64,000 nt of DNA from Escherichia coli (GTDB lineage Bacteria; Pseudomonadota; Gammaproteobacteria; Enterobacterales; Enterobacteriaceae). This document shows, piece after piece, positions 3,601 through 62,212 of this stretch (position 1 is the stretch's first letter; the number at the start of each line of letters is the position of its first letter). A program made the position numbers and the translations under genes. The stretch lies in NCBI RefSeq assembly GCF_003334815.1, contig NZ_QOWO01000004.1. The stretch is one strand, 5' to 3'. Under the pieces are notes generated by a model. It had not been told where the DNA came from and ran no database searches. It saw only the letters and a list, made by a program, of their open reading frames with translations.

Positions 3601-3681
3601 GTTGGTACGAAATGTTGCACAATCAGCAAGTTAGCGTCACTGTAGTAAATAAAAGAACCTGCCTCACCAGCAGGTTTTTTT
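3601..3681 (+). ncRNA. orzO: Antitoxin small RNA 1 (OrzO-like), ~80 nt
   Basis: Predicted start ~7 nt after the -10; 5' segment 3601..3620 GTTGGTACGAAATGTTGCAC is complementary to the toxin leader at 3435..3452; ends at an intrinsic terminator. Extent is predicted, not measured. Confidence 0.6.
3656..3681 (+). terminator. Intrinsic terminator of sRNA 1 (AACCTGC-CTCACCA-GCAGGTT followed by a T-run)
   Basis: 7-bp stem, 7-nt loop and a T7 run read directly. Confidence 0.7.
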
Positions 3682-3837
3682 ATTTACTGCGATCTACTTT
3701 CCAGATATTTTTTGCCAATAGCCCAACTTAAATATTCACATCCCGGTCAAATGGTGCGTTGAATATAAAATCGATGAATTTATAAATAAAAATGAGTTAT
3801 ATGATGAATTAATAAAAACAGTAATCATTTTATTAAA

Positions 3838-48671: not shown

Positions 48672-49465
48672 AACGTACGCATCAGGCGCGGCAGAGGGAC
48701 CGCAACTTCACTTAATGTGCCTGCCTGCAATTGATCTTCAATCACACGTCGCGACAGGCAACTAATTCCCAACCCATGACGCACCGCATGTTTGATTGCC
48801 TCGGAGTTACCTAATTCCATCGCCATCTCAAACTTCGGTAAATGTGACAGCAACAGATAATCGACAATCTCCCGCGTGCCGGAACCGCGTTCACGCAGGA
48901 TCCACGGCGCAGCGGCCAGCTGTTCTAAGGTGACCGGACCACGGGCCAACGGCGAAGTCGGCGCGGCGAAAACCACCAGCTCGTCTTCCAGCCACGGTTC
49001 AGAAATGATTTCAGTGCTGTGGCACGGTCCTTCAATAAAGCCAATATCAACGCGGAAATCCAGCACCGCTTGCATCACGTCCTGGCTATTCCCAACGCTA
49101 AGTTCAATCGGCAACTGCGGATAATCATGGCGATAACGGGCGATAACTGCAGGCAGAATGTAGTTACCGATGGTACTACTGGCATAGATACGAATCGCGC
49201 CGTTGTCTTCGCGAAACAGTTGTTCGATTTCAACCGCCTGTTCAAGCAATGCCAACGCACGCGGATAGAGCAGCCGCCCGTGTTCATTAACAACCAGTCT
49301 TTTCCCCACGCGATCAAACAGTTGCACGCCAAGCTGCCCTTCCAGGTCGGTCAAGGCTGCGCTCACTGCTGATTGCGACAACGCCAGCATCACCGACGCC
49401 TGGGTGGTTGATCCACTTTTCAATACTTCTGCAAAAACTTCCAACTGCCGGAGGGTGATGTGCAT
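48584..49465 (-). CDS. yeiE: LysR-family transcriptional regulator (293 aa)
   Basis: N-terminal LysR helix-turn-helix; divergent from yeiH. Confidence 0.85.
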
Positions 49466-49563
49466 AGTCGCTTACCACTTATAAAGATTAATTATAAATA
49501 TATAATCAATTTTATTTTTAAACCAGTTAGTCGTAACCTTATGCCCGGTTAAAGGAGAGGGTT

Positions 49564-50613
49564 ATGACGAATATCACCTTACAGAAACAACATCGTACAC
49601 TGTGGCATTTTATTCCGGGGTTAGCCCTGAGTGCAGTTATCACCGGGGTCGCCCTGTGGGGTGGTTCCATTCCCGCGGTTGCGGGTGCCGGGTTTAGTGC
49701 CCTCACCCTCGCAATCTTGTTGGGGATGGTTTTAGGCAACACCATCTATCCGCACATCTGGAAAAGCTGTGACGGTGGTGTGCTGTTTGCCAAGCAATAT
49801 TTATTACGTCTGGGTATCATTCTTTATGGCTTCCGTCTGACGTTCTCGCAAATTGCCGATGTCGGTATCAGTGGGATCATCATTGACGTGTTGACGCTGT
49901 CCAGTACCTTCCTGCTGGCTTGCTTCCTGGGGCAGAAAGTGTTTGGTCTGGATAAGCACACCAGCTGGTTGATCGGTGCCGGTAGCAGTATCTGTGGTGC
50001 TGCCGCGGTACTGGCGACTGAGCCGGTAGTGAAAGCGGAAGCCAGTAAAGTAACCGTGGCTGTTGCAACCGTTGTTATCTTCGGGACCGTCGCGATTTTC
50101 CTCTACCCGGCGATATATCCGCTGATGTCTCAATGGTTTAGTCCGGAAACTTTCGGTATCTACATTGGTTCTACTGTGCACGAAGTGGCGCAGGTGGTGG
50201 CGGCAGGTCATGCCATCAGCCCGGATGCGGAAAACGCAGCAGTTATTTCCAAAATGCTGCGCGTGATGATGCTGGCTCCGTTCCTCATCCTGCTGGCGGC
50301 GCGTGTTAAACAGCTGTCTGGGGCGAACAGCGGCGAGAAAAGCAAAATCACTATTCCGTGGTTTGCCATCTTGTTCATCGTAGTTGCCATCTTTAACTCG
50401 TTCCACCTGTTACCGCAGAGCGTGGTGAACATGCTGGTAACGCTGGATACCTTCCTGCTGGCAATGGCGATGGCGGCGCTGGGTCTGACCACTCACGTCA
50501 GCGCGCTGAAAAAAGCTGGGGCGAAACCTCTGCTGATGGCACTGGTACTGTTTGCCTGGCTGATTGTTGGTGGTGGTGCGATTAACTATGTGATTCAAAG
50601 CGTCATCGCATAA
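49564..50613 (+). CDS. yeiH: Inner-membrane protein (349 aa)
   Basis: ORF track; hydrophobic. Confidence 0.8.
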
Positions 50614-50686
50614 ACCACTACATCTTGCTCCTGTTAACCCGCTATCATTACCGTTTTCCTCCAGCGGGTTTAACAGGAGTCCTCGC

Positions 50687-51544
50687 ATGAAATACATTGG
50701 AGCGCACGTTAGTGCTGCTGGCGGTCTGGCAAATGCCGCAATTCGCGCCGCCGAAATCGACGCAACCGCGTTTGCCTTGTTCACCAAAAACCAACGTCAG
50801 TGGCGTGCCGCACCGCTCACGACGCAAACCATCGATGAATTCAAAGCCGCCTGTGAAAAATATCACTACACATCGGCGCAAATTCTTCCCCACGACAGTT
50901 ATCTGATTAACCTCGGACATCCGGTCACTGAAGCTCTGGAAAAATCGCGCGATGCCTTTATAGATGAAATGCAGCGTTGCGAACAGCTGGGGCTTTCTTT
51001 GCTCAACTTCCACCCTGGCAGCCATCTGATGCAGATTTCAGAAGAGGATTGCCTTGCGCGTATTGCCGAATCCATCAACATTGCGCTGGATAAAACTCAA
51101 GGTGTGACAGCGGTGATAGAAAACACCGCCGGTCAGGGCAGTAACTTAGGGTTTAAATTCGAACATCTCGCGGCGATTATCGACGGCGTGGAAGATAAAT
51201 CCCGCGTCGGCGTCTGCATTGATACCTGCCATGCTTTCGCTGCCGGGTATGATTTGCGTACTCCAGCCGAATGCGAGAAAACATTCGCGGATTTTGCCCG
51301 TACTGTCGGCTTTAAGTATCTGCGCGGGATGCACCTTAACGATGCGAAAAGCACCTTTGGCAGCCGCGTTGACCGCCATCATAGCCTCGGTGAAGGCAAT
51401 ATCGGTCATGATGCGTTCCGCTGGATCATGCAGGACGACCGTTTCGACGGCATTCCGCTGATCCTCGAAACCATCAACCCGGATATCTGGGCAGAAGAGA
51501 TCGCCTGGCTGAAAGCGCAACAAACTGAAAAAGCGGTAGCCTGA
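50687..51544 (+). CDS. nfo: Endonuclease IV (285 aa)
   Basis: ORF track; size and synteny. Confidence 0.9.
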
Positions 51545-51546
51545 AG

Positions 51547-52635
51547 ATGAATAACCGGGAAAAGGAGATCCTTGCAATTTTACGGCGTAACCCGCTGATT
51601 CAGCAGAACGAAATTGCGGACATGCTGCAAATCAGCCGTTCGCGCGTTGCGGCGCATATTATGGATTTAATGCGCAAAGGCCGGATTAAAGGCAAAGGTT
51701 ACATTCTCACCGAGCAGGAATACTGCGTAGTGGTGGGGACAATCAATATGGATATTCGCGGGATGGCGGATATCCGTTACCCGCAATCGGCTTCTCATCC
51801 CGGTACAATTCATTGCTCAGCGGGCGGCGTGGGACGCAACATCGCCCACAATCTGGCGCTGTTAGGCCGTGACGTCCATTTGCTTTCAGTGATTGGCGAT
51901 GACTTTTATGGCGAAATGCTCCTGGAAGAAACGCGCCGTGCCGGCGTGAATGTCTCCGGCTGCGTTCGTTTGCATGGTCAAAGCACATCGACGTATCTGG
52001 CAATTGCCAATCGAGACGATCAAACCGTGCTGGCGATTAACGATACCCATCTGCTGGAACAGTTGACACCGCAACTACTGAACGGGTCGCGCGATTTACT
52101 TCGTCATGCGGGCGTGGTACTGGCTGATTGCAACCTGACAGCCGAGGCGCTGGAATGGGTCTTTACCCTCGCTGATGAAATCCCGGTGTTTGTCGATACC
52201 GTTTCAGAATTCAAAGCGGGCAAAATCAAACACTGGCTGGCGCATATTCACACCCTGAAACCCACTTTACCGGAGCTGGAAATTTTATGGGGACAGGCGA
52301 TCACCAGCGATGCTGACCGTAATACCGCAGTGAATGCATTGCATCAGCAAGGTGTTCAGCAACTGTTTGTTTATTTGCCCGATGAGTCAGTTTATTGCAG
52401 CGAAAAGGATGGAGAACAATTTTTGCTGACCGCGCCAGCGCATACGACAGTAGACAGTTTTGGTGCTGACGATGGTTTTATGGCGGGCCTGGTATATAGC
52501 TTTCTTGAAGGATACAGTTTCCGCGACAGCGCCCGTTTTGCGGTAGCCTGCGCGGCAATTTCGCGCGCCAGCGGCAGCTTAAACAACCCTACCCTGTCTG
52601 CCGATAACGCGCTTTCATTAGTGCCAATGGTGTAA
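51547..52635 (+). CDS. yeiI: PfkB-family sugar/nucleoside kinase with N-terminal HTH (362 aa)
   Basis: ORF track; paralogous to psuK plus an N-terminal HTH-like segment. Confidence 0.8.
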   Translation: MNNREKEILAILRRNPLIQQNEIADMLQISRSRVAAHIMDLMRKGRIKGKGYILTEQEYCVVVGTINMDIRGMADIRYPQSASHPGTIHCSAGGVGRNIAHNLALLGRDVHLLSVIGDDFYGEMLLEETRRAGVNVSGCVRLHGQSTSTYLAIANRDDQTVLAINDTHLLEQLTPQLLNGSRDLLRHAGVVLADCNLTAEALEWVFTLADEIPVFVDTVSEFKAGKIKHWLAHIHTLKPTLPELEILWGQAITSDADRNTAVNALHQQGVQQLFVYLPDESVYCSEKDGEQFLLTAPAHTTVDSFGADDGFMAGLVYSFLEGYSFRDSARFAVACAAISRASGSLNNPTLSADNALSLVPMV

Positions 52636-52642
52636 CAATGTT

Positions 52643-52733
52643 GCCGGATGCGACGCTTAACGCGTCTTATCCGGCCTACAAATCAGGCAATTTCAGCAAG
52701 TAAATGTAGGCCTGATAAGCTTGCGCATCAGGC
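52643..52733. repeat. REP pair (BIME)
   Basis: GCCGGATGCGACGCTTAACGCGTCTTATCCGGCCTACAAA and an inverted partial copy. Confidence 0.75.
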
Positions 52734-52741
52734 AATGACAC

Positions 52742-53992
52742 TCAAGCTAAACCAATAAAGAGCCCGGCAATGGTCGCACTCATCAAGTTGGAAAGCGTCG
52801 CCGCCGCCAGCGCCCGTAAACCAAGCTGGGCGATTTCCGGCGCACGGTGTGGCGCAACCGCAGAAAACGCCCCCACCACCACCCCGATAGAACCAAAGTT
52901 AGCGAAACCGCACAACGCGAAGGAAATAATCGCCACAGTTTTAGCATCGAGAGTGCCAGCCGTTTGCAGATAGGGTGAGAAATTGAGATAAGCGACAAAT
53001 TCATTTATTGCCAGTTTCTGTCCAATCAAACTCCCGGCAAGATTCGCATCACTCCAGTCCACACCCATCACCCACGCCAGTGGAGCCAGCAGGTAACCTA
53101 AAATGGACTCCAGCGAGGCATGTTCAAAACCAAACCAGCCACCAACGCCGCCGATAATACCGTTAATCAACGCAATTATTGCAACAAATGCCATCACCAC
53201 TGTTGCCACACCTGCGGCGATTTTCAGCCCGGTCATTGCCCCTGTCGCAGCGGCTTCAATAATGCTTTTTGGCGGTGTTTCGGTGAAAGAGAGGTTATTA
53301 AAGGAAACCTGCGAAGATTCCGTTGCCGGGCTTAACAGGCGGGCAAACAAGATCCCGCCAGGGATCGCCATTAATGATGCCGCCAGCAGATATTCCACAG
53401 GCACGCCCAGTGCGGCGTAACCAATCATTGTCGAACCAGCAATCGAGGCCATGCCACTACAAATCGCTGTAAATAATTCATTGCGATTCAGACGATCGAT
53501 AAAGGGTTTGACGATTGCCGGAATTTCGTTTTGCCCGAGGAAAATGGTGGTGACCGCGACGAATGACTCGATCTTGCTGATATTTAATGCTTTCTGGAAG
53601 ATACCGCCGAGAATTCGAATTAAAATCCCCATCACACCGATGTAGTAGAGAATACTCACCAGCGCGGTGACGAAGATAATTGCCGGTAACACCCTGAAAC
53701 CAAAGATAAATCCTGCACCATCAAATAAGGTATCCATTTTCGGTCCGACCAGAGAACCGAAGATAAATGCGCTACCCGCGTCGCTGTACGCCATCACTTT
53801 ATGCACGCCAAAAGCGACTTTTTCAGCGACCCAACGCCCTGGCGGTAACCAAAGCATAATGCCGCCAATCACGACCTGTAACACTAACGCCGCGCCAACG
53901 GTACGCAGGCTGATCTTCTTCTTGTTTACTGACAGTAAAAACGCAATCGTCAGCAATACCACCATTCCCAGAACACTTCTCATGACATCCAT
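52742..53992 (-). CDS. nupX: NupC-family nucleoside transporter (416 aa)
   Basis: ORF track; close paralog of psuT. Confidence 0.85.
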   Translation of the reverse strand: MDVMRSVLGMVVLLTIAFLLSVNKKKISLRTVGAALVLQVVIGGIMLWLPPGRWVAEKVAFGVHKVMAYSDAGSAFIFGSLVGPKMDTLFDGAGFIFGFRVLPAIIFVTALVSILYYIGVMGILIRILGGIFQKALNISKIESFVAVTTIFLGQNEIPAIVKPFIDRLNRNELFTAICSGMASIAGSTMIGYAALGVPVEYLLAASLMAIPGGILFARLLSPATESSQVSFNNLSFTETPPKSIIEAAATGAMTGLKIAAGVATVVMAFVAIIALINGIIGGVGGWFGFEHASLESILGYLLAPLAWVMGVDWSDANLAGSLIGQKLAINEFVAYLNFSPYLQTAGTLDAKTVAIISFALCGFANFGSIGVVVGAFSAVAPHRAPEIAQLGLRALAAATLSNLMSATIAGLFIGLA

Positions 53993-54091
53993 AGTGATTA
54001 TCTCTTCATGTCATATTGGGCGACGGCTTTCTGCCCATCAGAAATAGCCAGGCCTGCATCTTGCGATACCGGCCCGGCTTGTTATCAACAC

Positions 54092-55033
54092 TTAATGGGT
54101 TTTGATGTAGCCGCGCACGCACTCTTCGACTAATCCCCAGAACCAGTCTGTATCAATAGTGATGCCGACTTTGGTATTGGCGGGCTTGCCAAGAACGCCC
54201 AGCTCGTCGCAGACGGTACGCCCATAGCAAGGGCCACTGTTGACGTCCACTTCGACGTACATCTCCTGGGTTTTAATGCCATCAGGGTTAATCAGATAAC
54301 CGATGCAGGTGGCGTCGTGCACCGGGCCGCCAGCAAGGCCGTAGTTTTCGAACTGCGTTTTGAGAGTGAAGTTCATGATGTCGCTGAACAGCTCTCCGGC
54401 GGGGCCGCCTGCCCTTTCCATCCGAGCAATCACGTCCGGGGTGCAAACGGTCTGGTTGGTGAGATCGAGGCCCATCATCACTAATGGAACGCCGGAGGTG
54501 AACACTACGCGTGCGGCTTCCGGGTCGGCAAAGATGTTGAACTCGGCAGATGGCGTGAAGTTGCCTGTACCGTAAGCGCCGCCCATTAGCACAATTTCAC
54601 GGATTTTGGGCAGGATCGCGGGTTGCATACGCATTGCCACCGCGATATTTGAAAGCGGACCAACCGGCACCAGAGTGATATCGCCATCGCTTGCCATCAG
54701 GGTATCAATGATATATTTCACCGCATGAGTGCTTTCTGCCTGGCGGGTCAGCGGCTCGAATACCGGGCCATCCAGTCCGGTTTCACCGTGAATATTATCG
54801 GCAACGATTTGTTGACGCATAATGGGCTGCGGCATCCCCGCATAAACCGGAACATTAATCTCCAGTTTCTGGCAAACATTCAGGCCATTAATTAATGTTT
54901 TATCAAGCGTCTGATTACCCGCTACAATAGTGATGCCTAATAAATCTATTGCCGGATGTTTCGCCGCCATCATTATAGCAATAGCATCATCATGACCCGG
55001 ATCACAATCCAGAATAATTTTTCTCTTTTCCAT
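54092..55033 (-). CDS. rihB: Pyrimidine-specific ribonucleoside hydrolase (313 aa)
   Basis: N-terminal DCDPGHDDA motif. Confidence 0.9.
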
Positions 55034-55201
55034 TGTTTATTTCCTCTGTTTCCAGTTGCGTTATTTTTTCTACAGCAAAGAAAATTCGACCGGGCCGATG
55101 ATTGAATCTTAACAACAGCGTACGTATGCTAAATATGAGAAATCTCATAGCGGATAAACATCGTGAAAGAAATCCACAATAATGATCTTAAGCAGCAATT
55201 G

Positions 55202-55861
55202 ATGAGTGAATCCGCGTTTAAGGATTGCTTTTTAACGGATGTTTCAGCCGATACGCGGCTGTTTCATTTTTTAGCGCGTGACTACATTGTGCAGGAAGGG
55301 CAACAGCCGTCCTGGCTGTTTTACCTGACGCGAGGCCGCGCCAGGCTTTACGCCACGCTAGCTAATGGTCGCGTGTCGCTGATCGATTTCTTTGCCGCCC
55401 CCTGTTTTATTGGCGAGATTGAGTTAATCGATAAAGACCATGAACCGCGTGCGGTGCAGGCTATTGAAGAGTGTTGGTGCCTTGCGCTCCCTATGAAACA
55501 TTACCGTCCGCTGTTATTAAACGACACGCTATTTTTACGAAAACTCTGCGTCACCTTAAGTCATAAAAATTATCGTAATATTGTTTCTTTAACTCAGAAT
55601 CAATCATTTCCGTTAGTGAATCGCCTGGCAGCATTTATATTACTCTCGCAGGAAGGTGATCTTTATCACGAAAAGCATACGCAAGCGGCAGAGTATTTAG
55701 GCGTTTCTTATCGACATCTTTTATATGTTCTCGCGCAGTTCATTCACGACGGTTTATTAATTAAAAGCAAGAAAGGGTATCTCATTAAAAACAGAAAGCA
55801 GTTGTCAGGACTGGCGCTGGAGATGGACCCGGAGAATAAATTCTCCGGGATGATGCAGTAA
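55202..55861 (+). CDS. yeiL: CRP/FNR-family transcriptional regulator (219 aa)
   Basis: ORF track 55163..55861 (GTG) trimmed to ATG 55202. Confidence 0.8.
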
Positions 55862-55884
55862 AAATTATTTTCAATAGCGCGATT

Positions 55885-55924
55885 GCCGGATGCAACGCTT
55901 AATACGTTTTATCCGGTCTACAAA
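55885..55924. repeat. REP element
   Basis: GCCGGATGCAACGCTTAATACGTTTTATCCGGTCTACAAA. Confidence 0.7.
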
Positions 55925-55931
55925 TCGAGCA

Positions 55932-57182
55932 TTACGCCAGACCAATAAAGAACCCGGCAATAGTCGCACTCATCAGGTTGGAAAGCGTTGCTGCTGCCAG
56001 CGCCCGTAAACCAAGCTGGGCGATTTCCGGCGCGCGTTTTGGCGAAATAGCCGAAAATGCGCCAACGACAACACCGATAGAACCAAAGTTAGCAAAACCA
56101 CAAAGCGCAAAGGAGATAATCGCAATGGTTTTCACTTCCAGCGTGCCGCCTGTTTGCAGGTATGGGGAGAAACTCAGGTAAGCGACGAATTCGTTAATCG
56201 CCAGTTTCTGCCCAATCAGGCTACCCGCAAGATTGGCATCACTCCAGTCCACACCCATGATCCACGCCAGCGGTGCCAGCACATAGCCAAAAATACTTTC
56301 CAGAGAGGCATTGGCGAAACCAAACCAGCCGCCAATTCCGCCGATAATGCCGTTGATCAGCGCAATAATTGCGACAAACGCCATTACCACCGTCGCCACA
56401 CCAGCGGCGATTTTTAGCCCGGTCATCGCACCGCTCGCCGCCGCTTCGATAAAGCTTTTTGGCGGCGTTTCGCTGAACGACAGATTTTCAAATGTGACCT
56501 GCGAAGGCTCGGTTGCCGGGCTAAGAATACGTGCAAACAAAATCCCGCCAGGGATCGCCATCAGCGATGCCGCTAACAGGTAGTCAATTGGTACGCCCAT
56601 TCCGGCATAACCAATCATCATCGAACCAGCAATGGACGCCATCCCGCTACAAATTGCGGTAAACAACTCGTTGCGATTCATGCGATCGATAAACGGTTTA
56701 ACGATCGCCGGGATCTCATTTTGCCCGAGGAAAATAGTAGTAACCGCAACAAAAGATTCGATTTTGCTGATGTTGAGGGCTTTCTGGAAAATGCTGCCAA
56801 GGATGCGAATCAGCAGCCCCATCACGCCAATGTAGTACAGCAGACTGATGAGCGCAGTAACGAAAATAATCGCCGGAAGTACGCGAAAGGCGAAGATAAA
56901 ACCCGCACCGTCAAACAGGACATCCATTTTCGGCCCAACCAGCGAACCAAAAATGAAGGCGCTACCGGCATCACTGTAAGACATCACTTTATGAACGCCT
57001 AATGCCGCCTGTTCTACTGCCCATTTTCCCGGTGGGAAGTAGAGCATGATGCCACCAATAGCGATTTGCAGCAGCAGTGCGGCTCCAACCGTGCGCAAAC
57101 TGATGCTCTTTTTATTCACTGACAACAGAAATGCTATTGCCAGTAACACCACCATCCCCACAACACTTCTCATTATATCCAT
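55932..57182 (-). CDS. psuT: NupC-family transporter, putative pseudouridine transporter (416 aa)
   Basis: ORF track; most residues identical to nupX by eye. Confidence 0.85.
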   Translation of the reverse strand: MDIMRSVVGMVVLLAIAFLLSVNKKSISLRTVGAALLLQIAIGGIMLYFPPGKWAVEQAALGVHKVMSYSDAGSAFIFGSLVGPKMDVLFDGAGFIFAFRVLPAIIFVTALISLLYYIGVMGLLIRILGSIFQKALNISKIESFVAVTTIFLGQNEIPAIVKPFIDRMNRNELFTAICSGMASIAGSMMIGYAGMGVPIDYLLAASLMAIPGGILFARILSPATEPSQVTFENLSFSETPPKSFIEAAASGAMTGLKIAAGVATVVMAFVAIIALINGIIGGIGGWFGFANASLESIFGYVLAPLAWIMGVDWSDANLAGSLIGQKLAINEFVAYLSFSPYLQTGGTLEVKTIAIISFALCGFANFGSIGVVVGAFSAISPKRAPEIAQLGLRALAAATLSNLMSATIAGFFIGLA

Positions 57183-57275
57183 AATGATTTTCCCTTCATG
57201 CCGGTAAACCCGGCGTCAGCGCCAGGTTTTGGTATGCTTGATGAGTACGGGCGACGGCTTTCTGCCCGTCAGAAA

Positions 57276-58214
57276 TTAACCCGCGAGACGCTGATATTCT
57301 TTGGCAATTTCGCTCGCCAGAATGGCGTTGTTGAACACCAGCTGGATGTTGGATTTCAGGCTGTCACCGCCGGTCAGTTCAGCAACGCGCGCCAGCAGGA
57401 ATGGCGTACTTTCTTTACCAATGACTCCCTGAGCTTCAGCTTCAGCTACCGCCTGATCGATCGCCGCATTGATAGTGTGTTCCGGCATAGCAAACTGTTC
57501 CGGGATCGGGTTCGCTACCACGAGGCCACCGTTCAGACCGCTTTGCCATTTCACCGCCATTGCACGGGCAATTTCGCTGGCGCTGTCGAGACGAATGCTG
57601 ACGTCAAACGGGCTGGTGCGGCAGAAAAACGCAGGCAGCGCTTTAGTCTGATAGCCAATTAACGGCACACCGAAGGTTTCTAAATACTCAGTGGTTAATC
57701 CTAAATCGAGAATAGATTTCGCCCCGGCACAAACAACGGTGACATTAGTATTTGCCAGTTCTTGCAAATCGGCAGAAATATCGAAGGTATGTTCCGCCCC
57801 GCGATGCACACCACCAATTCCCCCGGTGGCAAATACTTTAATTCCGGCAAGCGCCGCAATAATCATCGTTGAAGCCACAGTGGTTGCGCCATTTTTTCCG
57901 GCGGCAACAACAAAAGGTAAATCGCGACGACTAACTTTGGTCACGTTATGCCCTTCACGACCCAGTAATTCAATTTCTTCTTTGCTTAACCCCACTTTCA
58001 TCACGCCGCCAATAATGGCGATCGTGGCAGGTACAGCGCCCTGTTTACGAATAGTTTCTTCAACTTCAATTGCGGTCTGGGCATTTTGTGGGAACGGCAT
58101 CCCGTGAGAAATAATGGTCGATTCCAGCGCCACAACCGGTTTTTTGTTTTTTAAAGCGTCCTGCACTTCCGGGGAAATTTGTAATAATTCAGGGGAAATT
58201 TTTAATTCAGACAT
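57276..58214 (-). CDS. psuG: Pseudouridine-5'-phosphate glycosidase (312 aa)
   Basis: ORF track; synteny. Confidence 0.85.
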   Translation of the reverse strand: MSELKISPELLQISPEVQDALKNKKPVVALESTIISHGMPFPQNAQTAIEVEETIRKQGAVPATIAIIGGVMKVGLSKEEIELLGREGHNVTKVSRRDLPFVVAAGKNGATTVASTMIIAALAGIKVFATGGIGGVHRGAEHTFDISADLQELANTNVTVVCAGAKSILDLGLTTEYLETFGVPLIGYQTKALPAFFCRTSPFDVSIRLDSASEIARAMAVKWQSGLNGGLVVANPIPEQFAMPEHTINAAIDQAVAEAEAQGVIGKESTPFLLARVAELTGGDSLKSNIQLVFNNAILASEIAKEYQRLAG

Positions 58215-59143
58215 TCTGCGTTCTCCACTAACGATATAACGTTGGCAATCGATAAATCGGGGTTATTGGTGTATTCACAGGAGAGCGCCATTGACGAACA
58301 TCCCTGTGCGAAACGAACAGATTCGGCAAACGGCATTCCGTCTACCCAACACGAAGCAAGTCCCGCCATCATGGCATCGCCCGCTCCGGTAACATTAATA
58401 ACATTGGTTTTGATCGGCGCAGACCAGCCACTTTCACCGCTGATATCGCTGTAATAAACGCCGTCGCCGCCCATGCTCAATACCAGTCGGTTCAGGCCAT
58501 GTTGATGGAACCAGGCAGCAACTTTTGCCACATCTTCACGCCCTGACAGCGCAATCCCACTCAGGGTTTCCGCTTCAAGGCGGTTTGGCTTGAGAGTGTG
58601 GATCTGATTTAGACGGTCGCGCACTTTGACACATTTCCATGCCGAAACCGGATCGACAAATACGGGTACGTTGGCGGCATTATCCAGAATCCATGCCAGT
58701 GCCTCTTCACTGATATTACAGTCCGCGACAATGACCTTTGCCCTCTGAATAAATTCACCGTGCTGTGCGAGATATTCAGCTGTAATAGCGTTGCTAATAT
58801 TCATGTCATTTATAGCAACCAGCATTTCACCGGTATTATCGAGTAATGATAAATAACTCGACGTATTTTCTCCCGGCACAATCAGGCATTTATCGACATA
58901 AACGCCAGATTGATTGGTTTGCGTTAGCAGCGATTGACCATAAAAATCACTGCCTACGGCGCTCAGTAGCCAGGCTTTGTTACCCAGCAACGCCAGGTTT
59001 TGTGCAATATTGCGCCCTACTCCACCAGGCGTAAATTTTATTTTACCTGGATTTGAATCCGCATAATTTAATGATTCATGTGAATATCCGGCGACATCAA
59101 TATTCGCCGAACCTATAATTACGACATAATCCTTTTCGCGCAT
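58202..59143 (-). CDS. psuK: Pseudouridine kinase, PfkB family (313 aa)
   Basis: ORF track; 13-nt overlap with the psuG start. Confidence 0.85.
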   Translation of the reverse strand: MREKDYVVIIGSANIDVAGYSHESLNYADSNPGKIKFTPGGVGRNIAQNLALLGNKAWLLSAVGSDFYGQSLLTQTNQSGVYVDKCLIVPGENTSSYLSLLDNTGEMLVAINDMNISNAITAEYLAQHGEFIQRAKVIVADCNISEEALAWILDNAANVPVFVDPVSAWKCVKVRDRLNQIHTLKPNRLEAETLSGIALSGREDVAKVAAWFHQHGLNRLVLSMGGDGVYYSDISGESGWSAPIKTNVINVTGAGDAMMAGLASCWVDGMPFAESVRFAQGCSSMALSCEYTNNPDLSIANVISLVENAECLN

Positions 59144-59210
59144 AGCACGTCCTCTGGTAAAAAATTACCAACCCTGTCAATCCACAAGAATATAGATACT
59201 GCAAAGACGG

Positions 59211-59246
59211 TTTAAACATGTGTTCATATTTAAACATGTGCTCATA
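59211..59246. repeat. Perfect tandem 18-bp direct repeat upstream of psuK
   Basis: TTTAAACATGTGTTCATA followed immediately by TTTAAACATGTGCTCATA; one mismatch. Confidence 0.7.
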
Positions 59247-59380
59247 GTATGCATGTTTTACGTAAAGTAAATTACCGCCAGAGAGGCAAAATGGGCAGAT
59301 TTGAGCAGGCTCACAAAATGCGATTAAATGCCTGAATTACAAAAGCGAGGAATTTGTGACGGGATGCACAGAACAGAACA

Positions 59381-59410
59381 ATAAAAAAGGGCAGAAAATA
59401 ATCTGCCCTT
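59381..59410 (-). terminator. Intrinsic terminator of fruBKA
   Basis: AAGGGCAG-loop-CTGCCCTT followed by TTTTTT on the minus strand. Confidence 0.75.
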
Positions 59411-59565
59411 GAGGAAATAACCTGAGTGTTTGATGAACGTTTGAAGTTTCTACTGAAAAATAAAACCATTTAAATTCATAAAATTACATTCACAAACCGG
59501 TCATTCTCTTTGCGCTCATCAAATGTTACAGGACAGGAAATTTCTGCCCTGTAACACACCTTTTA

Positions 59566-61257
59566 TTACGCTGCTTTCGCTACTGCGTCCACTTCCGGAC
59601 GTTTCAGGAAGGCATAGGCCAAACCCGCCACCAGCGTACCGGCAATAATTGCTACCAGGTAACCCAATACCGGCGTAATAGCGCCAGGGATCAGCAGAAC
59701 AAACAGACCACCGTGCGGTGCCATCAGTTTCGCACCAATCGCCATTGAGATTGCGCCAGTCAGCGCCCCACCCACGATACAGCACGGCAGCACACGCATC
59801 GGATCACGAGCAGCAAACGGAATTGCACCTTCCGAAATGAAGCACAGTCCCAATACCAGAGCGGCTTTGCCACCTTCCTGCTGCGCTTTGTCGAATTTGC
59901 GACGCGCCACCATTGTTGCCAGACCCATTGCCAGCGGTGGCACCATACCTGCCGCCATAATCGCCGCCATCGGGCCATAGGTTTGAGTACTCAGCAGACC
60001 CACACCGAATGCGTACGCTGCTTTGTTTACCGGACCGCCCATGTCAGTACACATCATGCCACCGAGGATCGCCCCCAGCAGAACCGCATTCGCAGTCCCC
60101 ATGGTCTGCAGCCAGTGAGTCAGCCCTTCGAGAATGCCAGCAACTGGTTTACCGATCAGGTAGATCATCGCCAGACCGACCACCAGACTGGAAATTAGCG
60201 GAATGATCAGGATCGGTTTCAGCGCCTCCATACTCTGTGGCAGTTTCAATTGCGTACTGATTAACTTCGCAATGTAACCAGCCAGGAAGCCCGCAATAAT
60301 ACCACCAATGAAGCCAGAACCGGTGCTGACCGCCAGCATACCGCCAATCAGACCCGGAGTGAGGCCCGGACGATCGGCAATGGAAAAGGCAATATAACCT
60401 GCCAGTACCGGCACCATCAGCGCAAAGGCTGAACCACCACCAATCTGCATCAGCGCCGCAGCCAACGTACCCGGCTCTTTAAACGCTTCGATACCAAAAG
60501 CAAAAGAAAGCGCGATACACAGACCACCTGCAACGACCATCGGCAGCATGTAAGAAACGCCCGTCAGCAAGTGACGGTATGCGCCTGCACTCTCTTTCTT
60601 ACTTTCAGTGGTCGCCGTTTGAGCTTTGCCCGCCGGTTCATACGGCGTTGCTTCAGCAACCGCTTTATCCAGTTCCTGCGCGGTTTTCTTCAGCGCCAGA
60701 CCGGTAGAGGTACGATACATCGGTTTACCAGCAAATTTCGCCAGATCCACTTCGATATCTGCCGCCACAATCACCAGATCCGCTGCTGCGACTTCTTCGG
60801 GAGTGATTGCATTACCCGCGCCAACAGAACCACGGGTTTCAACTTTCACCCACCAGCCACGTTTTTTCGCTTCGGTTTCAATGGCTTCAGCCGCCATAAA
60901 GGTGTGTGCTACGCCAGTCGGGCAAGCAGTCACCGCAACTACGCGTTTCGGACCGCTGGCGGCAACTGGTGCTGTCGCAGCGACCGGCGCAGTGTAAGGT
61001 TTCGCATGGCCTTTGGCTTCACTCAGGAACAGCTCAGGGTGCGCAACTGCCCGGGAAATATCGCCCAGCCAGACATTTTTACCGTTCAGCGCGCTGTCGT
61101 TCGGGATGGAATCACCGAGAACAATCGCCATTTCAGCGTCGTTCGGATTGTCGATGATTTCCAGTTTTGCTTTTCGCGCCGCCGCGCCCAGCAGGGTCTT
61201 CGCCATATAGGCGCGTGCCTGACCGAGATTAGCGTCAATAATCAGCAGCGTTTTCAT
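59566..61257 (-). CDS. fruA: Fructose PTS EIIB'BC component (563 aa)
   Basis: ORF track; synteny. Confidence 0.9.
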   Translation of the reverse strand: MKTLLIIDANLGQARAYMAKTLLGAAARKAKLEIIDNPNDAEMAIVLGDSIPNDSALNGKNVWLGDISRAVAHPELFLSEAKGHAKPYTAPVAATAPVAASGPKRVVAVTACPTGVAHTFMAAEAIETEAKKRGWWVKVETRGSVGAGNAITPEEVAAADLVIVAADIEVDLAKFAGKPMYRTSTGLALKKTAQELDKAVAEATPYEPAGKAQTATTESKKESAGAYRHLLTGVSYMLPMVVAGGLCIALSFAFGIEAFKEPGTLAAALMQIGGGSAFALMVPVLAGYIAFSIADRPGLTPGLIGGMLAVSTGSGFIGGIIAGFLAGYIAKLISTQLKLPQSMEALKPILIIPLISSLVVGLAMIYLIGKPVAGILEGLTHWLQTMGTANAVLLGAILGGMMCTDMGGPVNKAAYAFGVGLLSTQTYGPMAAIMAAGMVPPLAMGLATMVARRKFDKAQQEGGKAALVLGLCFISEGAIPFAARDPMRVLPCCIVGGALTGAISMAIGAKLMAPHGGLFVLLIPGAITPVLGYLVAIIAGTLVAGLAYAFLKRPEVDAVAKAA

Positions 61258-61273
61258 TATGCCTCTCCTGCTG

Positions 61274-62212
61274 TCAGTTAAAAGGTTGTAAGTCGACGCG
61301 CGCCATCATTGCGGCCAACTGCGGACGATCGGTAATACCCACATTGCTTTGACTTACCGCCAGGGCTGCAACAGCTGTCGCCAGACGCAGTGTGTGTTCA
61401 CTGGATTCACGCATCAGCAAGCCATAAATCAGGCCACCAACCATAGAATCCCCTGCGCCAACGGTGCTTACGACATCGACTGACGGTGGTTTGGCGATCC
61501 ATTCGCCGGAGGCATTAACCCAAAGCGCGCCTTCGGCACCCAGTGAAATAACAACATGCGCGATGCCTTGTTCACGTAGCGCATGTGCAGCTTCAATCAC
61601 ATCTTTCATTTCAGGCAGTTTACGGCCTGCCCAGATTTCCAGCTCGCGGCGGTTAGGTTTCACCAGCCACGGTGCCGCTTTCAAACCTGCTACTAACGCT
61701 TCACGGCTACTATCAAAGATAATGCAAGGACACTGACTACGCAGGCGAGTCATCCAGTCGGTGAACGCTTCCGGGCTGACGCCTGACGGTAAGCTTCCGC
61801 TGACACAGACCATATCGAACTGACCGAGCCAGCTCAGAGAATCAGTCACAAAGCGTTCCCAGTCGGCGGGGGTGACTTCAAAACCCGAGAAGTTGAAGTC
61901 GGTCACTTCGCCGTCTTTTTCCGTCAGCTTAACGTTAATTCGGGTGCGCCCCTGTACAACCTGGAAACGGTTGGCAATGCCCAGCTCGCTGAACAGTTGC
62001 TGAAAACCATCCTGATTGTCTTTACCCAGGAAGCCGCCAACGGTGACATCAATTCCCAGGTCTTTTAATACTTTGGCCACGTTGATGCCTTTACCCGCCG
62101 CATGCAGACCGGTGGTTTTCACCAGGTTCACTTCGCCGCGTTCAATTTCCGGGCAGAAACCAACAAGGTCATAAGCCGGATTAAGGGTGATAGTAGCAAC
62201 ACGTCTGCTCAT
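61274..62212 (-). CDS. fruK: 1-phosphofructokinase (312 aa)
   Basis: ORF track; synteny. Confidence 0.9.
   Translation of the reverse strand: MSRRVATITLNPAYDLVGFCPEIERGEVNLVKTTGLHAAGKGINVAKVLKDLGIDVTVGGFLGKDNQDGFQQLFSELGIANRFQVVQGRTRINVKLTEKDGEVTDFNFSGFEVTPADWERFVTDSLSWLGQFDMVCVSGSLPSGVSPEAFTDWMTRLRSQCPCIIFDSSREALVAGLKAAPWLVKPNRRELEIWAGRKLPEMKDVIEAAHALREQGIAHVVISLGAEGALWVNASGEWIAKPPSVDVVSTVGAGDSMVGGLIYGLLMRESSEHTLRLATAVAALAVSQSNVGITDRPQLAAMMARVDLQPFN

Follow-up and report, generated by a model that had tools for sequence, protein, structure and literature searches.

Three kinds of described system come close to the locus analysed here, which lies in a 64,000-nt stretch of Escherichia coli DNA (contig NZ_QOWO01000004.1 of assembly GCF_003334815.1; hereafter the window), where two transporter genes, nupX and psuT, enclose rihB and yeiL. 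As proteins, NupX and PsuT match the concentrative nucleoside transporter (CNT) family (TC 2.A.41; NupC, vcCNT and CNT_NW) end to end, with its domains and motifs. As a rearrangement, the locus resembles the homeologous deletions and fusions known between direct-repeat paralogs (chimeric rrn, tuf and insertion sequence (IS)-flanked cases in enterobacteria), which likewise involve a single crossover with loss of the spacer, an in-frame chimera, and crossovers placed where identity is highest. Unlike the usual cases, the divergence between nupX and psuT is unusually high (21%, with exact runs of 38 nt at most), and the product is a functional-looking transporter with the psu-operon promoter side and the nupX terminator side. 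As a genomic site, the interval recalls replacement islands and flexible genomic islets in having conserved flanks, fruA and nfo, which hold a psu cassette, a rih cassette or both; unlike such islands, these cassettes carry no integrase or mobile-element genes, and their sole common homology is the transporter gene, its leader and the terminator region. Genes, paralogy and mechanism of recombination all belong to known kinds, while the natural chimeras, the alternative-cassette layout and a leader hairpin are modest new details. The best explanation of the whole, to which we assign a probability of about 0.85, is that nupX and psuT are ancient CNT paralogs belonging to two cassettes that stand side by side in E. 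coli, and that they have repeatedly been fused by deletion.

A 7.6-kb query running from yeiI to psuK matched E. coli K-12 MG1655 at 100%, and gene names were taken from the annotation of that strain, where the order is yeiI, nupX, rihB, yeiL, psuT, psuG, psuK. An initial annotation of the window had described nupX and psuT as minus-strand genes about 3.2 kb apart, with 416-aa products identical at most positions, forming direct repeats around rihB-yeiL. This description holds in full: the open reading frames (ORFs) occupy exactly the intervals listed in Table 1, their starts are 3190 bp apart in direct orientation, and the alignment is gapless, with 366 of 416 residues (88.0%) identical. The mirrored artefactual frames that it had pointed out are also present, as antisense ORFs at roughly matching places in both transporter genes, a trivial consequence of their homology. 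DNA identity is 984/1251 nt (78.7%), or 88, 96 and 52% at codon positions 1, 2 and 3, and the longest exact runs measure 38, 23, 20, 20 and 17 nt. The same annotation had reasoned that low nucleotide identity beside high protein similarity would argue for ancient divergence without recombination potential; identity is indeed low, yet recombination still occurs.

The evidence for this comes from a synthetic deletion junction, consisting of 1 kb of the yeiI side, one transporter gene and 1 kb of the psuG side, which was searched against 5426 complete E. coli genomes and which ordinary genomes are unable to cover in one place. Five genomes cover it, namely EH10-18-47 (Laos), SY019 (Korea), E203449 (Mali), CFSAN004176 (USA) and 11PC (mink, China); in each, yeiI and psuG are separated by one intact transporter gene of 1251 bp, and rihB-yeiL is absent. 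Their yeiI-to-psuG span is exactly 3251 or 3200 bp, against 6441 bp expected, in the layout yeiI, psuT-5'/nupX-3' chimera, psuG. Since any possible hybrid would outrank B2-type genomes in this search, the list of five should be complete. When 216 sites fixed between nupX and psuT alleles were read along each hybrid, a single switch from psuT (5') to nupX (3') was found in every case, with 208-216 sites consistent. The crossovers fall at gene positions 757-779, 923-947, about 985-986, 1084-1088 and 1195-1242, all within the last 495 of the 1251 nt, a region of higher identity ((495/1251)^5 is about 0.01 by simple arithmetic). On the 5' side the hybrids match E. coli psuT alleles at 98-100% identity, and on the 3' side they match E. 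coli nupX alleles at 96-100%; the cleanest case is EH10-18-47, with 100% identity to K-12 psuT on the 5' side, 99.7% to K-12 nupX on the 3' side, and a crossover inside the 23-nt exact run. The breakpoints differ and stand in different allelic backgrounds, and we therefore count five independent events.

These products show the features of a direct-repeat deletion: copies in the same orientation with exact runs of up to 38 nt, and single-switch products without the spacer. Exact-identity runs of about 20-30 nt or more are the threshold for a homologous deletion substrate. The proposal that the repeats are a substrate for homologous recombination able to delete rihB-yeiL is thus borne out by natural chimeras, each with its own breakpoint. 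Its second half, amplification of rihB-yeiL, found no such support: a synthetic query for the reciprocal tandem-duplication junction (yeiL, psuT-3'::nupX-5', rihB) was covered whole by no E. coli genome, the best matches being ordinary nupX-rihB arrangements at 91% coverage. Mechanistically, nupX and psuT have repeatedly recombined out of register, joining psuT (5') to nupX (3') in frame, with the removal of 3190 bp (rihB, yeiL and one transporter copy) and a return to a psuK-psuG-transporter-yeiI layout. The crossovers are probably RecA-type homeologous exchanges begun in short identical runs. Purifying selection holds the proteins at 88% identity, with the canonical CNT sequence motifs the same in both, and has left identical stretches of 20-38 nt that lie mostly towards the 3' end; the last 40% of the gene (positions 757-1242) has 81% nucleotide identity, versus 75%, and contains the 38-nt, the 23-nt and one of the 20-nt runs.

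Single-transporter isolates could also be read as assembly artefacts produced by collapsed repeats, or as imports of an E. albertii-like locus, and some of the records are indeed chromosome-level assemblies from shotgun projects. However, paralogs that are 79% identical do not collapse, and 1.9 kb of unique rihB-yeiL sequence is missing; rihB-yeiL is absent altogether from 7 of the 5426 genomes, a number that fits the five chimeras, strain CUPS04 and one other. Four of the chimeric proteins recur elsewhere, being on record on 4, 6, 6 and 29 contigs, while the fifth, that of 11PC, does not differ from K-12 PsuT, as the crossover lies at the extreme 3' end. Chimeras of the CFSAN004176 and SY019 types were found on 24 and 15 contigs, from isolates and gut metagenomes, with psuG and yeiI as flanks in every place shown, and this recurrence of the same context in independent contigs rules out a single-assembly artefact. 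Five different breakpoints would also be hard to reconcile with artefact or import, as would the fact that both halves of the chimeras match E. coli alleles at 96-100%, compared with 88% for E. albertii. We consider this explanation scarcely credible.

Traces of older exchange between the two genes were sought in their nucleotide alignment, as had been proposed, and two psuT-like tracts were recognized in nupX, at gene positions 946-1035 and in the last ~110 nt. The first has an identity of 0.90 to E. albertii psuT and 0.87 to ST131 psuT, compared with 0.77-0.82 for all other sequences, nupX orthologues included. Among sites that distinguish K-12 nupX from K-12 psuT at about 950-1030, E. albertii and ST131 psuT have eight consecutive nupX-type states (permutation p of 0.005 and 0.001, respectively). 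The most satisfactory reading of this patch is an old conversion tract, copied from psuT into nupX. The second tract, measured over the last 109 nt, is 0.92-0.94 identical to psuT of E. albertii and ST131 (B2), versus 0.77-0.84 to nupX orthologues. The conversion reading rests on this outgroup comparison, as permutation tests within K-12 are suggestive at most (p=0.018 for the 38-nt run, p=0.06 for 3'-end identity).

Comparison across genera places the split between the paralogs far back. E. coli NupX shows the same 88-89% identity to each of the PsuT proteins of E. coli, E. albertii, Citrobacter and Enterobacter, whereas E. coli PsuT is 98, 95 and 94% identical to its orthologues in the latter three. 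In neighbour-joining trees, the psuT genes of Escherichia form a clade with 95-100% bootstrap (100% for the whole gene), and E. coli nupX joins the rihB-linked transporter genes from Leclercia, Buttiauxella and Superficieibacter with 57-83% support (whole gene and first 175 codons), a grouping lost in the tree of codons 176 to the end. In no tree are E. coli nupX and psuT mutual nearest relatives. Because each groups with its own orthologues across genera, the two must have separated before the divergence of Escherichia, Citrobacter and Enterobacter.

These results bear directly on the initial annotation's reading of the locus, a segmental duplication that built two salvage modules, taken here as a recent tandem event within the E. 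coli lineage. The direct orientation, the 88% protein identity, and the leader block and repetitive extragenic palindromic (REP) element found with both copies would suit such an event. Yet the synonymous divergence is near saturation: by the Nei-Gojobori method, the proportion of synonymous differences (pS) is 0.63, the synonymous distance (dS) 1.40, the nonsynonymous distance (dN) 0.077 and dN/dS 0.055, and saturation is reached in the first 525 nt, where pS is about 0.8, against about 0.55 in the remainder. NupX and PsuT are no closer to each other in E. coli (88%) than E. coli NupX is to PsuT of Citrobacter and Enterobacter, PsuT orthologues are 94-98% alike, and the trees place the two genes apart. 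Nor is a multi-gene block repeated in the same order and orientation, the repeat being limited to the transporter gene, its leader and the REP element; nothing on the psu side (psuG and psuK) corresponds to rihB or yeiL. The kinases YeiI and PsuK, cited as a further paralogous pair, are both PfkB paralogs, as claimed, but their identity over 307 aa is only 39%, their genes lie on opposite strands, and YeiI carries an additional N-terminal helix-turn-helix (HTH) domain. A recent duplication is accordingly very improbable.

The synteny of related loci suggests another origin for the direct repeat. The arrangement fruA-psuK-psuG-psuT-yeiI-nfo, without nupX-rihB-yeiL, was found in E. albertii, two Citrobacter, Enterobacter asburiae and one Leclercia, while at the same site another Leclercia, L. 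adecarboxylata, and a Buttiauxella have fruA-yeiL-rihB-nupX-nfo without psu genes, the former keeping a yeiI remnant. Among the loci retrieved, both cassettes occur in tandem in E. coli/Shigella only. Moreover, the spacers between nupX and yeiI in E. coli and between psuT and yeiI in E. albertii are orthologous, the O157 form being nearly identical to that of E. albertii. From this pattern we infer that the E. coli layout arose when a yeiL-rihB-nupX cassette joined a resident psu cassette. Such a cassette would have integrated beside psuT through a crossover in the 3' end of the transporter gene, the reverse of the present deletions, which would also account for the psuT-like 3' terminus and downstream flank of nupX. 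A simple Campbell-type model, with a swap of all sequence 3' of a single crossover, was considered but does not account for the whole pattern, given that nupX positions 1036-1125 are not psuT-like.

Alternatively, the tandem layout could be ancestral for this part of the Enterobacteriaceae, the single-cassette layouts having arisen by repeated losses, some of them through paralog recombination. The very same type of deletion is observed in present-day genomes, the rih-only Leclercia keep a yeiI remnant together with the same terminator as the psu-cassette Leclercia, and the distances between E. coli and Leclercia are alike for both proteins (NupX-NupX 90%, PsuT-PsuT 88.5%). Against this, the psuT gene of E. 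albertii keeps its psuT character as far as the 3' end, one 90-nt patch excepted, and so is no psuT/nupX chimera; many independent losses would be required; and the tandem is confined, among the loci retrieved, to E. coli/Shigella. We regard an ancestral tandem as possible but unlikely.

Several observations weigh against the explanation by ancient paralogs, adjoining cassettes and repeated deletion fusions. The DNA identity of the repeats is only 78.7%, with no exact run longer than 38 nt, and the events are rare (five lineages in 5426 genomes), a rarity that may itself be due to the low identity, as the RecA/MutS barrier should strongly suppress recombination at such divergence. Two of the breakpoint intervals, of 2 and 5 nt when measured against K-12/O157 alleles, from which the true parental alleles may differ, are too short for a homology run to be named. 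Bootstrap support for the nupX clade is moderate, the synteny sample within Escherichia consists of E. coli/Shigella and E. albertii, and the origin may have been cassette insertion in the E. coli lineage or an ancient tandem with losses elsewhere.

Table 1. Features of the nupX-psuT locus, in coordinates of the window.
Feature	Position	Strand	Description	Basis or remark
yeiI	51547..52635	+	HTH-PfkB sugar kinase	NF007416; HTH_24 and PfkB domains
nupX	52742..53992	-	CNT-family nucleoside transporter, 416 aa; copy adjoining yeiI	ORF; K-12 annotation; TIGR00804
rihB	54092..55033	-	between nupX and psuT	
yeiL	55163..55861	+	between nupX and psuT	
psuT	55932..57182	-	CNT-family transporter, 416 aa; last gene of psuK-psuG-psuT	ORF; TIGR00804
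psuG	57276..58214	-	pseudouridine catabolic gene upstream of psuT	K-12 annotation; PF04227
psuK	58202..59143	-	pseudouridine catabolic gene upstream of psuT	NF007355
Segment missing in natural recombinants	53993..55931		nupX leader, rihB, yeiL, REP downstream of psuT	
Crossover-bearing 3' 40% of nupX	52751..53236	-	gene positions 757-1242; contains all five crossover intervals	partner tract in psuT, 55941..56426
psuT-like patch of nupX	52958..53047	-	gene positions 946-1035	likely old gene-conversion tract
nupX 3' terminus (last ~110 nt) and nupX-yeiI spacer	52636..52853	-	probably psuT-derived	
Leader hairpin upstream of nupX	54018..54045	-	stem UGGGC/GCCCA, 11-nt loop	AGAAAGCCGUC
Leader hairpin upstream of psuT	57249..57276	-	stem ACGGGC/GCCCGU, loop as in the nupX copy	AGAAAGCCGUC
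REP-like palindromic element downstream of nupX	52641..52689		86% identity over 49 nt to 55883..55931	sub-threshold Rfam match to naRNA4 (REP-derived)
REP-like element downstream of psuT	55883..55931		49 nt	counterpart of 52641..52689

Outside the coding sequences, only two short blocks are common to nupX and psuT, the downstream REP-like element and a 28-nt leader block in which 27 of 28 positions are identical. The leader block forms a hairpin with a stem of 5-6 bp and an 11-nt loop of consensus AG-NNN-GC-N-GUC, and both copies are present in the predicted minimum-energy fold. In the 64-kb window the hairpin is matched only by these two copies, against 0.15 matches expected. A conserved copy precedes psuT or nupX in Escherichia, Citrobacter, Enterobacter, Leclercia (psuT), Buttiauxella and Superficieibacter; both sides of two stem pairs vary together (C-G/U-A and G-C/A-U), and 92% of the cells in the alignment are paired, compared with 53% or less in slid controls. 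The Leclercia nupX gene is without the conserved hairpin and has a different one in its place, and the element was not found at the Serratia and Klebsiella psuT loci of 73% identity or at more distant CNT loci. A covariance model of the hairpin gave no matches beyond its training copies over 82 sources (1.38 Mb), and an Rfam scan of positions 49000-61500 (E<=1) left the leaders unmatched, returning only sub-threshold REP-type (naRNA4) matches. In a promoter and terminator consensus scan, promoter-like sites were fewer than in shuffles.

With the 6-bp stem and invariant AG..GC.GUC loop in mind, the hairpin could act as a cis-regulatory RNA, not described before, in this clade of transporters, and the fruA-nfo interval could be a cassette-exchange site of the Enterobacteriaceae in which the transporter gene serves as a portable homology arm. 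Transporter, leader hairpin and terminator region together would then let psu and rih cassettes be added, swapped or removed through ordinary recombination, with no need of mobile-element machinery. We advance this combined proposal only tentatively, as a possible but unlikely one.

The psuT leader holds a second GC-rich hairpin (57183-57248, minus strand; CCUGGCG...CGCCGGG followed by UUU), kept with loop changes in Citrobacter, Enterobacter and Leclercia; the nupX leader is without it, a 41-nt gap standing in its place. It resembles a weak terminator or attenuator, placed between psuG and psuT. On the opposite side of nupX, the nupX-yeiI spacer (52636-52741) has two forms in E. coli, one of 106 bp with two REP-like units in K-12 and one of 55 bp with a single unit in O157 and others, the latter matching the form in E. 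albertii.

As to function, the sequences indicate that NupX and PsuT are full-length CNT transporters. Both match TIGR00804 over its full length (500.5 and 517.6 bits, respectively, with a cut-off of 442) and carry PF01773, PF07670 and PF07662, and the closest solved structures, over residues 2-415, are CNT_NW 5L26 (E 8e-131) and vcCNT 3TIJ (E 2e-124). The motifs GQNE, INEF and CGFANFGS, which we take to be substrate-site motifs of the family, are present and identical in both proteins. Most of the 50 residue differences between them are conservative; T188M alone falls at a position that presumably contacts the base in vcCNT (V188). Published work places both transporters in the vcCNT-like branch, outside the NupC branch, and uptake assays detected weak transport of uridine and cytidine by NupX and no uptake of uridine, cytidine or xanthosine by PsuT (PMC11241209). 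PsuT is a putative pseudouridine transporter, on account of its operon linkage to psuK and psuG (PMC11241209; PMC13090712), and the psuT deletion data obtained in engineering strains for pseudouridine are indirect (PMC13090712).

All five chimeras keep psuT residue 188, the psuT leader and the psuT operon context, and for this reason they would be expected to act like PsuT carrying the C-terminal portion of NupX. They amount to domain swaps made in nature, in which a weak carrier of uridine and cytidine is combined with a presumed pseudouridine carrier, and they bear on pseudouridine production strains, in which psuT is deleted. Among papers dealing with transport by NupX and PsuT or with the deletion of psuT to produce pseudouridine, our search, which was loose in part, found no description of nupX-psuT recombination. 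The chimeras provide a documented natural case of 79%-identical paralogs recombining repeatedly into intact products, and a locus for measuring homeologous recombination in E. coli.

Paralog recombination is one of several routes by which the rihB-yeiL-nupX module is decaying in E. coli, the others being microhomology deletion and IS1-associated deletions. The most common loss is a 1136-bp deletion inside nupX (window 52790-53925), present in 971 of the 5426 complete genomes (18%), among them ST131, CFT073, Nissle and relatives, which fuses the first 66 nt of the gene with its last ~44 nt across the microhomology GTT, without affecting rihB-yeiL. The remnant of this B2 type (ST131 locus 3625-3790) is annotated only as a 66-bp 'hypothetical protein' pseudogene; such remnants, like the chimeras, are easily mislabelled, and the annotation of nupX and psuT needs care. 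Strains TOK-001 and ET734 have IS1-adjacent deletions that took the 5' part of nupX together with rihB, or with rihB and yeiL, and strain A25 has a nupX gene truncated at its 5' end, the losses in the three strains being independent. The rih-side module is evidently dispensable in E. coli. In CUPS04, a deletion extends from inside yeiI to the end of psuK, removing nupX, rihB, yeiL, psuT and psuG and leaving a truncated yeiI that overlaps a 320-aa psuK variant; it is no paralog crossover, as yeiI and psuK lie on opposite strands (convergent).

The haplotypes of E. coli also differ around the module. DNA identity between ST131 (B2) and K-12 is 81% for yeiI, 89% for psuT, 89% for psuG and 81% for psuK, and 96-98% for nfo, rihB, yeiL and fruA. 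The B2 alleles of psu and yeiI stand at the normal distance of ~91% identity from E. albertii, and on this comparison it is the K-12-type psu/yeiI alleles, rather than those of B2, that look foreign. Since K-12 and ST131 have rihB-yeiL in common between divergent genes, recombination junctions would lie in or near the transporter genes. Six matches to the region in the E. coli genome searches were on plasmid-labelled records, possibly F-prime plasmids or mislabelled contigs.

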